In this document: positions 2,518 to 3,967 of the stretch, one piece after another | Layout of the letters: the number at the start of each line of letters is the position of its first letter | Numbering within the stretch: position 1 is the first letter of the stretch | Virus record (IMG/VR): IMGVR_UViG_2917855067_000002 | Length of the DNA: 5,668 nt | From: a virus | Lineage: Duplodnaviria > Heunggongvirae > Uroviricota > Caudoviricetes | Reading direction: 5' to 3' (one strand) | Notes under the pieces: model-generated | What the model was told of the DNA's origin: nothing | Seen by the model: only the letters and a program-made list of their open reading frames with translations | The model's database searches: none | Position numbers and translations under genes: made by a program

Positions 2518-2538
2518 GCCGCATCAATGCGGCTTTTT
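2518..2538 (+). terminator. Hairpin plus T5 (GCCGC-ATCAAT-GCGGC-TTTTT), a terminator-like structure directly upstream of the pI region
   Basis: A 5-bp GC stem with a 6-nt loop, followed by TTTTT at 2534..2538. Confidence 0.5.
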
Positions 2539-2539
2539 C

Positions 2540-2580
2540 TTGCGTGTAATTGCGGAGACTTTGCGATGTACTTGACACTT
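2540..2580 (+). promoter_or_regulatory. Lambda-type pI (int) promoter region with a cII recognition box TTGC-N6-TTGC overlapping the start of xis
   Basis: TTGC at 2540..2543, a 6-nt spacer, then TTGC at 2550..2553. This is the known cII binding motif flanking the -35 of cII-dependent promoters. It sits where lambda has pI, so transcripts would start inside xis and express int without xis. Confidence 0.7.
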
Positions 2581-2784
2581 CAGGAGTGGAACGCACGCCA
2601 GCGACGCCCAAGAAGCCTTGAAACAGTTCGTCGATGGGTACGCGAGTGCAGGATATTCCCTCCTCCGGTTAAAGATGGAAGAGAGTATCTGTTCCACGAA
2701 TCAGCGGTAAAGGTTGACTTAAATCGACCAGTAACAGGTAGCCTTTTGAAGAGGATCAAAAATGGGAAGAAGGCGAAGTCATGA
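2566..2784 (+). CDS. xis: Excisionase Xis (72 aa), lambda-type
   Basis: The translation MYLTLQEWNARQRRPRSLETVRRWVRECRIFPPPVKDGREYLFHESAVKVDLNRPVTG... matches lambda Xis as I recall it, and its 3' end overlaps int by 23 bp. The ORF-track start at 2527 is an in-frame upstream extension through the terminator and cII box and is not the true start. Confidence 0.95.
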   Translation: MYLTLQEWNARQRRPRSLETVRRWVRECRIFPPPVKDGREYLFHESAVKVDLNRPVTGSLLKRIKNGKKAKS

Positions 2785-3832
2785 GCGCCGGGATTTACCC
2801 CCTAATCTTTATATAAGAAACAATGGATATTACTGCTACAGGGACCCAAGGACGGGTAAAGAGTTTGGATTAGGCCGAGACAGGAGGATAGCAATCACTG
2901 AAGCTATACAGGCCAACATTGAGTTATTTTCAGGACACAAGCACAAGCCTCTGACAGCGAGAATCAACAGTGATAATTCTGTTACGTTACATTCATGGCT
3001 TGATCGCTACGAAAAAATCCTCGCCAGCAGAGGAATCAAGCAGAAGACACTCATAAATTACATGAGCAAAATTAAAGCAATAAGGAGGGGTCTGCCTGAT
3101 GCTCCACTTGAAGACATCACCACAAAAGAAATTGCGGCAATGCTCAATGGATACATAGACGAGGGCAAGGCGGCGTCAGCCAAGTTAATCAGATCAACAC
3201 TGAGCGATGCATTCCGAGAGGCAATAGCTGAAGGCCATATAACAACAAACCCGGTCGCTGCCACTCGCGCAGCAAAATCAGAGGTAAGGAGATCAAGACT
3301 TACGGCTGACGAATACCTGAAAATTTATCAAGCAGCAGAATCATCACCATGTTGGCTCAGACTTGCAATGGAACTGGCTGTTGTTACCGGGCAGCGAGTT
3401 GGTGATTTATGCGAAATGAAGTGGTCTGATATCGTAGATGGATATCTTTATGTCGAGCAAAGCAAAACAGGCGTAAAAATTGCCATCCCTACAACATTGC
3501 ATGTTGATGCTCTCGGGATATCAATGAAGGAAACACTTGATAAATGCAAAGAGATTCTTGGCGGAGAAACCATAATTGCATCTACTCGTCGTGAACCGCT
3601 TTCATCCGGCACAGTATCAAGGTATTTTATGCGCGCACGAAAAGCATCAGGTCTTTCCTTCGAAGGGGATCCGCCAACCTTTCACGAGTTGCGCAGTTTG
3701 TCTGCAAGACTCTATGAGAAGCAGATAAGCGATAAATTTGCTCAACATCTTCTCGGGCATAAGTCGGACACCATGGCATCACAGTATCGTGATGACAGAG
3801 GCAGGGAGTGGGACAAAATTGAAATCAAATAA
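2762..3832 (+). CDS. int: Tyrosine site-specific integrase Int (356 aa), lambda-type
   Basis: The translation MGRRRSHERRDLPPNLYIRNNGYYCYRDPRTGKEFGLGRDRRIAITEAIQANIELF...HELRSLSARLYEKQ...HLLGHKSDTMASQYRDDRGREWDKIEIK matches lambda Int over its full length, including the R..HxxR..Y catalytic region, and the protein is 356 aa as in lambda. Confidence 0.97.
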   Translation: MGRRRSHERRDLPPNLYIRNNGYYCYRDPRTGKEFGLGRDRRIAITEAIQANIELFSGHKHKPLTARINSDNSVTLHSWLDRYEKILASRGIKQKTLINYMSKIKAIRRGLPDAPLEDITTKEIAAMLNGYIDEGKAASAKLIRSTLSDAFREAIAEGHITTNPVAATRAAKSEVRRSRLTADEYLKIYQAAESSPCWLRLAMELAVVTGQRVGDLCEMKWSDIVDGYLYVEQSKTGVKIAIPTTLHVDALGISMKETLDKCKEILGGETIIASTRREPLSSGTVSRYFMRARKASGLSFEGDPPTFHELRSLSARLYEKQISDKFAQHLLGHKSDTMASQYRDDRGREWDKIEIK

Positions 3833-3860
3833 TGATTTTATTTTGACTGATAGTGACCTG
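3831..3860. promoter_or_regulatory. Int arm-type binding sites of the P' arm (P'1-P'3) of attL
   Basis: The reverse complement reads CAGGTCACTATCAGTCAAAATAAAATCATT, the lambda P' arm-type site cluster (consensus C/AAGTCACTAT), directly downstream of the int stop. Confidence 0.85.
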
Positions 3861-3867
3861 TTCGTTG

Positions 3868-3880
3868 CAACAAATTGATA
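3868..3880. promoter_or_regulatory. IHF binding site (H') of the attL P' arm
   Basis: The reverse complement TATCAATTTGTTG fits the IHF consensus WATCAANNNNTTR and lies between the arm-type sites and the core, as in lambda attP. Confidence 0.75.
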
Positions 3881-3905
3881 AGCAATGCTTTTTTATAATG
3901 CCAAC

Positions 3906-3920
3906 TTAGTATAAAAAAGC
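3906..3920. other. attL core (15-bp lambda common core, reverse complement GCTTTTTTATACTAA), marking the phage-chromosome junction; bacterial B-arm DNA follows from 3921
   Basis: TTAGTATAAAAAAGC at 3906..3920 is the reverse complement of the lambda att core. The phage-side flank (CCAAC, reverse complement GTTGG) is lambda P', and the other flank (AGGCTTCA, reverse complement TGAAGCCT) matches E. coli attB. Confidence 0.9.
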
Positions 3921-3967
3921 AGGCTTCAACGGATTCATTTTTTCCATTTTAAAGCCCGGAGCAACCT

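Follow-up and report, generated by a model that had tools for sequence, protein, structure and literature searches.

The Int, Xis and attachment-site machinery of bacteriophage lambda is among the best-understood recombination systems, and the module described here is already known in kind. It lies on a stretch of 5,668 bp (IMG/VR record IMGVR_UViG_2917855067_000002), called the window in the following, which carries the integrase gene int, the excisionase gene xis and the attachment site attL of a lambdoid prophage, together with parts of an insertion sequence (IS) at both of its ends. The window is the entire contig PDIE01000021.1 of the draft assembly GCA_004745295.1, and the two sequences are identical. 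The initial annotation of the window had referred to the attB of E. coli. The host is not E. coli proper, as strain E3356, from which the contig originates, is an environmental Escherichia of the cryptic clade II.

Lambda itself (J02459, 27.7-29.1 kb) has the same gene order as the window, the same overlap of 23 nt between the 3' end of xis and the start of int, and the same bacterial attachment site. The cII box with the promoter pI, the arm-type sites P'1-P'3, the integration host factor (IHF) site H' and the 15-bp core are identical in both. Compared to lambda attP, the window is in the attL form (P'-O-B) and does not include the P arm, sib and tI. Lambda has ea8.5 upstream, whereas the phage in the window has a gene of 114 amino acids (AA) of the type known from phages 434 and HK022. 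In the comparison with the phage collection, the DNA of the module is 98.1 % identical to lambda (2529-3920) and 98.7 % identical to 434 and HK97 (2460-3920), with which the similarity reaches further upstream. The Int protein of the window differs from lambda Int by the three substitutions H164P, A245T and I248V. All three are shared with the Int of 434, which differs from that of the window only at S129N. In the C'-proximal P' arm, 434 carries two substitutions that are not found in the window, which is closer to lambda there. The lambda-att prophage of E. coli KE40, also located next to ybhC, encodes an identical Int protein. Phages of the 434, HK97 and KE40 type do not contain the DNA polymerase III theta-like gene and the cassette with an Invasin_D4 domain that are present in the window.

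Taken together, positions 2518-3928 of the window very probably represent the attL end of a lambdoid prophage at the lambda attB of E3356, adjoined by a real end of an IS911-group element whose position is best explained by targeting to a short IS911-like stub, while the fate of the early region and of attR cannot be read from the contig.

The initial annotation had proposed a lambda-type module at 2518-3928, and every feature listed for it was found at its place (Table 1), which is far beyond chance. The proposed match of xis, int, the P' sites, the IHF site and the core to lambda was confirmed by alignment. A substantial divergence of int and xis from lambda would have spoken against the identification, but 353 of 356 residues of Int and 70 of 72 residues of Xis are identical, and the identification stands. 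Residues 1-69 at the N-terminus of Int match the arm-type DNA-binding domain of heterobivalent integrases (PF09003, Arm-DNA-bind_1, E=7.1e-33), the catalytic domain matches PF00589 (Phage_integrase, E=1.7e-40), and the six catalytic residues R212, K235, H308, R311, H333 and Y342 are all present. The reading frames of int and xis are uninterrupted, and an independent assembly encodes the same Int protein. The motif TTGC-N6-TTGC occurs only once in the whole window (2540-2553), and the annotation of 434 places the cII site and the -35 region of pI at this position. The start of xis is overlapped by a predicted cII-activated pI promoter. Judged by its sequence, the int/xis/attL module is of the lambda type and intact.

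From the stop codon of int to the end of the core (3833-3920), the window is identical to lambda at every base. This includes, at lambda spacing, three arm-type sites and one IHF site, which we take to be P'1-P'3 and H' from the established knowledge of lambda attP. In a three-way alignment with K-12 attB and lambda attP, the switch from the lambda P' arm to the K-12 B arm is located inside the core, and from 3921 the window follows the B side of K-12 attB into ybhC. This agrees with the earlier proposals that attL is joined to the B arm of the E. coli attB and that the prophage occupies the canonical lambda attB, as the order P'-O-B is found in window orientation with ybhC next to it. An empty attB is present in a Logan contig with an identical YbhC protein (locus L023), and its B arm is 100 % identical to that of the window. 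The attL (P'-O-B) at the end of the stretch 2518-3928 is located at the canonical lambda attB between ybhB and ybhC. Its partner attR, with the P arm (P1, P2, X1, X2, F, H1, H2), would lie on the ybhB/bio side, beyond the reach of the contig. The attR junction adjoining ybhB would contain ...CGCTCAAGTTAGTATAAAAAAGCTGAACGAGAAACG..., which in window orientation corresponds to TTCCCGTTTCGCTCAAGTTAGTATAAAAAAGCTGAACGAGAAACGTAAAATG.

The mechanism suggested for the module is derived from its near-identity to lambda. The N-terminal domain of Int would bind the arm sites P'1-P'3 and the C-terminal domains would bind the core, with IHF bending the P' arm at H'. During the establishment of lysogeny, cII would activate pI at 2540-2553, and since the pI transcript would start inside xis, Int would be made without Xis. 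After induction, N-antiterminated leftward transcription would supply both Xis and Int. For excision, these two proteins, with IHF at H' and the P-arm sites of attR, would recombine attL and attR within the 7-bp overlap. Integration separates int from sib, and int mRNA derived from pL would therefore escape retroregulation in the prophage.

Table 1. Coordinates, strand and supporting evidence of the features in the 5,668-bp window.
Feature	Position	Strand	Evidence or remark
Right end of the 1,256-bp IS3-family (IS911-group) IS: C-terminus of OrfB and right inverted repeat (IRR, 256-281)	1-281	+	Contig starts inside the element
DNA polymerase III theta-like gene, 5'-truncated	282-424	+	PF06440 on the called gene
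Low-GC cassette (531-1484) with inverted-repeat arms, phage cargo outside the recombination module	497-1518		Inverted-repeat and Pfam evidence
104-AA phage gene, family annotated as transcriptional regulator	1736-2050	+	phrog_536, E=2.6e-45
114-AA phage gene, uncharacterised; homologue 5' of xis in 434 and HK022	2115-2459	+	phrog_1229, E=2e-51
Terminator-like hairpin with T run	2518-2538	+	Just 5' of pI; matching 434 sequence annotated as terminator
Predicted cII-binding tetrad repeat TTGCGTGTAATTGC (TTGC-N6-TTGC), pI region	2540-2553	+	Identical in lambda and 434
xis, excisionase, 72 AA	2566-2784	+	PF07825 (Exc), E=7.6e-41; 70/72 identical to lambda Xis
int, lambda-type tyrosine integrase, 356 AA, full length	2762-3832	+	353/356 identical to lambda Int
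Arm-type Int sites P'3, P'2, P'1	3829-3838, 3840-3849, 3850-3859	-	Base-for-base as in lambda
H' IHF site, core TATCAATTTGTTG (minus strand)	3868-3880	-	Identical to lambda
15-bp common core GCTTTTTTATACTAA (minus strand), attL crossover region	3906-3920	-	Identical to lambda
Bacterial B arm of attB and ybhC leader	3921-3967	+	Matches K-12 attB; 100 % identical to the empty attB of L023
ybhC, chromosomal, attB flank on the gal side	3968-5251	+	Matches ybhC annotation in E. coli; pectinesterase domain
Left end of a second copy of the same IS: left inverted repeat (IRL, 5368-5393), OrfA from 5441	5368-5668	+	Contig ends inside the element

The IS at both ends of the window belongs to the IS911 group of the IS3 family on the basis of its length, open reading frames (ORFs), DDE transposase and terminal repeats. 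A full copy has 1,256 bp, carries the annotation "IS3 family transposase, programmed frameshift" and contains two overlapping ORFs with the annotated frameshift and an rve (DDE) domain. Positions 1-281 are identical at 280 of 281 positions to positions 976-1256 of the full copy in E. coli H8, and 5368-5668 corresponds to positions 1-300 of that copy, the only difference being an additional C in a C run. The domain matches in the window are HTH_Tnp_1 at the left end of the element, in the right-hand copy, and rve_3/rve_2 at the right end. The termini are imperfect inverted repeats with TG...CA ends, with the IRL TGTAGTGGCATAG... at 5368 and the IRR ...GTTGACCACTACA ending at 281. One flank is visible per copy, ACG after the IRR and ATG before the IRL. 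The element shares the IS3-type ORF layout, the TG...CA ends and similar inverted repeats (40/45 at the right end) with IS911, but it is a distinct element with the termini TGTAGTGG instead of TGAAGTGG. It was found in 80 of 5,426 E. coli genomes, compared to 4,342 of the same 5,426 genomes for IS911-like ends.

That an IS end at position 281 abuts phage DNA, as claimed initially, was corroborated by the same junction in an independent assembly and in eight other genomes, and the IS/phage junction at 281/282 is genuine. The independent contig RHJQ01000047.1 (5,329 bp) shows zero substitutions compared to the window across 5.1 kb. At its start, the terminal 23 bp of the IS run into ACGTTGACC, and at its end GCCGGATG is joined to the initial 36 bp of the IS. 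Both junctions are the same as in the window. The ORF at 218-424 (68 AA) is a fusion of the IS end with the truncated theta-like gene (theta'). It occurs on 18 contigs, one of which is the complete chromosome CP056159.1. An assembly artefact, in which the 45-bp stub found in related prophages caused a chimeric or hand-made join to IS reads, is therefore very improbable. Such an error would fit the manual BLAST-based joining at contig-end repeats in this assembly (PMC6639607) and the position of the IS end, which stands in place of the stub without any shift in register. However, the stub and the IS have no common exact word longer than 15 nt, and a chimeric or hand-joined contig at the stub was rejected on the grounds of the independent assembly and of the 17 further contigs, one of them the complete chromosome, that encode the same fusion ORF.

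The right-hand IS is inserted in a repetitive extragenic palindromic (REP) element of the ybhC-ybhJ intergenic region (5262-5393), after GCCGGATG. In RHJQ01000047.1, an additional REP unit of about 90 bp is present compared to the window, either because the Ion Torrent assembly collapsed a repeat or because the strains differ. The presence of the same repeat in the same orientation at both contig ends is formally compatible with the 5.1-kb segment between them being a composite or excisable unit (int-xis-attL-ybhC), or a circle with a single IS. This can practically be dismissed, as a chromosomal gene within the segment keeps its native context, the REP DNA there is colinear with strain E1V33 and K-12, the flanking triplets differ (ATG before the IRL, ACG after the IRR) without a shared target duplication, and there is no precedent among the relatives.

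The two contig ends lie inside one and the same 1,256-bp IS, with 281 bp on the left and 301 bp on the right. The E3356 reads are single-end Ion Torrent reads of 35-400 nt that were assembled with MIRA and SPAdes, followed by manual BLAST-based joins at repeats on contig ends (PMC6639607). The contig stops within the IS copies because a repeat of 1.26 kb is too long to be spanned by single-end reads of 400 nt or less, and the end of the sequence inside the IS is a technical boundary. Since the window is limited by its contig, with both ends in IS copies, a truncation of the prophage by the IS is not established for E3356. Nevertheless, it is a live possibility given the same IS elsewhere.

Sibling prophages at the ybhC site are available from clade II, namely E1V33 (RHJI01000006), VATT01000039 and E2586 (PDIH01000072). 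The region 282-3920 of the window is entirely phage DNA and colinear with these complete-looking prophages. E1V33 is colinear with the window across 237-5367 at 98.1 % identity and VATT01000039 at 98.7 %, while E2586 is 99.3 % identical across 237-2049. The siblings have the same attL and nearly the same Int and Xis. Their early regions are visible upstream, and in VATT01000039 the upstream 6 kb contain cII, a cro-like gene, an S24 repressor, N, ral, cIII, kil, a Rad52-type recombinase, ssb, abc2 and an ea22-like gene. They lack the IS on either side. Where the right-hand IS starts, the REP region between ybhC and ybhJ continues, and at the position of the left-hand IS only a 45-bp IS-like stub is present (loci L004, L005, L007, L012 and L015), compared to an IS end of at least 281 bp in the window.

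The stub is identical to the right end of IS911 at 44 of 45 positions and is in register with window 237-281. Compared to the IS of the window, it differs at 5 of 45 positions. The window IS ends at the exact nucleotide where the stub of the siblings ends, in the same orientation. The left edge of the stub is a deletion joint with the microhomology CTGGAAA to the ea22-like gene, whose intact forms continue with ...DNWKLLGEH.... As a side observation, the stub provides the last 11 codons and the stop codon of the upstream ea22-like ORF as well as a TTG start for the theta-like gene. In a Logan contig (L024, ERR11569933, 10480-10881), a lambda-type ea8.5 and xis take the place of the theta-like gene after the stub. 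The stub tip therefore recurs as a mosaic joint at which different phage modules meet.

At the flanking single-nucleotide differences (295, 483 onward), the haplotype of the window is that of clade II, starting 14 bp after the junction. An import of the IS/theta' junction by recombination from a prophage remnant at the fliE site, where the same junction also occurs, was rejected because of this clade II haplotype from 295 onward. A homologous replacement of the stub by the full IS was likewise rejected, due to a diagnostic mismatch 2 bp from the IS tip and shared words of at most 15 nt. For IS911, the summary given in PMC9333248 describes a second target mode, in which the element inserts beside its own ends and forms a new IRR-IRL junction in strict orientation. 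In a corresponding event, the 1,256-bp element would insert at the stub tip by transposition targeted to an inverted repeat. Its IRL TGTAGTGGCATAG would land against the stub ...CTCGGTGGCCAGTTTTGGTTGACCACTTCA with 0-4 nt between them, and its IRR would then abut ACGTTGACC in stub orientation, as is seen on the readable side. From these sequence features, the position of the IS appears best explained by an insertion targeted to the tip of the stub.

The same junction was also found at a different chromosomal site. Eight readable loci contain a full IS, theta', the cassette, and the 104- and 114-AA genes, followed by a different excisionase-like gene, and end in a different integrase of 434 AA adjoining fliE. 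To the left of the IS, these loci show three different flanks without phage early genes: a GNAT acetyltransferase, an uncharacterised gene of 454 AA and a truncated Peptidase_S74 tail-fibre gene. The chromosomal genes zinT, yedEF and amyA are located within a few kb to the left of the IS. Since the three left flanks are distinct and lack early genes, the IS marks repeated one-sided prophage deletions at the fliE loci. Non-phage DNA or DNA from a remote part of the phage past the IS, together with the loss of attR or of the early genes, is the mark of a remnant and is found in these relatives, but not in the ybhC siblings, which lack the IS. In a separate observation on loci L027-L035 (e.g. CP056159.1), the IS at locus position 8809-10064 bounds a short prophage remnant beside fliE.

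For E3356, the sibling haplotype and the deletions at the fliE site point in opposite directions. A simple interruption, in which a 1.26-kb IS was recently inserted between the early region and xis-int of an otherwise complete prophage that may still be able to excise, falls just short of an even chance. It is suggested by the colinearity of 282-5367 (98.1-98.7 %) with sibling prophage ends that run into full early regions, and the clade II haplotype, which extends to the junction, suggests that the IS was inserted locally and recently. The right-hand copy, too, is cleanly inserted into the ybhC-ybhJ REP region compared to E1V33 and K-12. The supply of Xis and Int need not be lost in the case of a simple insertion, because N-modified transcription reads through the polarity caused by an IS. 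This N-dependent read-through is established lambda genetics. Against a simple interruption, the contig stops within the IS, and the same IS has repeatedly made adjacent deletions elsewhere.

The initial view that the IS truncates the prophage has a somewhat lower, though still considerable, probability. Here, the IS would be a deletion endpoint and would leave a remnant of about 3.6 kb (theta' to attL), in which int, xis and attL are stranded without pL, the early genes and perhaps attR, and normal excision would not take place. In all eight other readable loci with an identical IS/theta' junction, there is no phage early DNA to the left of the IS, and their three left flanks with nearby chromosomal genes are the signature of a one-sided IS-mediated deletion. 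However, these loci represent a separate event, with another site (fliE), another integrase and another haplotype, and the clade II siblings at ybhC that have the haplotype of the window look complete. A further point for a truncation is that no contig of E3356 with the expected upstream ea22-like gene was found, in its 136-AA or its 171-AA form. The 136-AA protein and its variants were found only in other strains, and hits to the 171-AA form of the E2586-type protein were confined to Logan contigs that are unrelated. The failure of exact protein look-ups to find the upstream contig is weak evidence, though. An exact look-up of the frameshifted OrfA for the DNA beyond the IS in E3356 returned no record. 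The ybhB/attR contig of E3356 was not retrieved either, with the YbhB allele present on at least 1,000 contigs and in a homology cluster of 2,224 members.

A broader explanation takes in the prophage at the ybhC site of E3356 as well as the elements found at fliE in other Escherichia. It is conceivable, although rather unlikely, that the stub serves as a recurrent landing pad for IS911-group elements, used independently in at least two haplotypes and followed by leftward one-sided deletions that leave int-xis-att remnants. Such later deletions to the left would account for the stub missing on this side of the IS.

Several points weigh against the reading of the window as an attL end with an IS targeted to the stub. 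A stub to the left of the IS was found in none of the genomes, and none of the eight readable loci retains it. The attR, the P arm and the early region all lie outside the window, and the competence of the module for excision is a prediction. In addition, homopolymer errors at 743-750 and 5611-5614 indicate an imperfect single-base accuracy of the contig. In the first case, an extra A in the A8 run splits an ORF of 233 AA (ATG at 697) and results in a call of 214 AA, whereas assemblies not based on Ion Torrent data (outside the PDI series) have one A fewer. In the second case, an extra C, which is absent from every full IS copy, leads to a frameshift in OrfA of the IS and a product of 65 AA. 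Both length differences are typical Ion Torrent homopolymer errors.

Upstream of the module, the homology to lambda begins at about 2529, and the preceding 70 bases and the 114-AA gene are of the 434/HK022 type. The lambda sequence found directly 5' of xis (hairpin AAGCCGCCTGATGGCGGTTTTTT) recurs at 2050-2104, which is ordinary lambdoid mosaicism. The 114-AA gene is thereby located between two hairpins (2050-2104 and the 434-type hairpin at 2518-2538), like an inserted module. An intact homologue of the theta-like gene with 53 AA is present in locus L006 and matches phrog_1105. For 282-1604, which covers the theta-like gene and the cassette, no near match was found in 5,426 complete E. coli genomes or the phage collection; the region is present in prophages of sibling clade II strains. 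An Rfam scan of the window reported no family at the gathering score.

The cassette (531-1484) has a length of 954 bp and a GC content of 38 %, and it is bounded by a perfect inverted repeat of 34 bp (497-530 and 1485-1518). It carries an ORF with an Invasin_D4 domain (697/755-1399) and its own hairpin (1418-1456). In the eight fliE-site loci (L027-L034), the cassette is inverted, as window 463-1518 matches their minus strand at about 97.7 %, and in the clade II prophages it has the orientation seen in the window. The cassette may be an invertible segment; there is no invertase gene near it. The plus strand at 1550-1740 contains a degenerate fragment of a UmuD/HumD-like gene (peptidase S24), recognised by reading its translation (...SAGDSHYREGILQGALLVVDSSLTPVDGSLLV...), and the left arm of the inverted repeat is a short inverted copy of the 5' part of this fragment. 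Position 1566-1618 matches a HumD gene, and the Chlobot annotation there is a UmuD-like protein. The inverted repeats at 412-530 and 1485-1600 were also considered as remnants of an IS6-family transposase, which was rejected since the arms are degenerate pieces of a umuD/humD-like gene.

The module itself has little biological consequence, as this copy is nearly identical to the well-understood lambda system. Nevertheless, it extends canonical lambda-att lysogeny to the Escherichia cryptic clade II. It also illustrates that a draft contig ending in an IS reflects a limit of the assembly and gives no evidence of a truncation. With the IS junction common to several loci and the IS911-like stub, a small set of natural cases is available in which to study IS targeting and the decay of prophages. 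If the stub is indeed a landing pad, it would represent a natural case of the targeted IS911 pathway, so far known from laboratory systems, as well as a specific way in which prophages decay.

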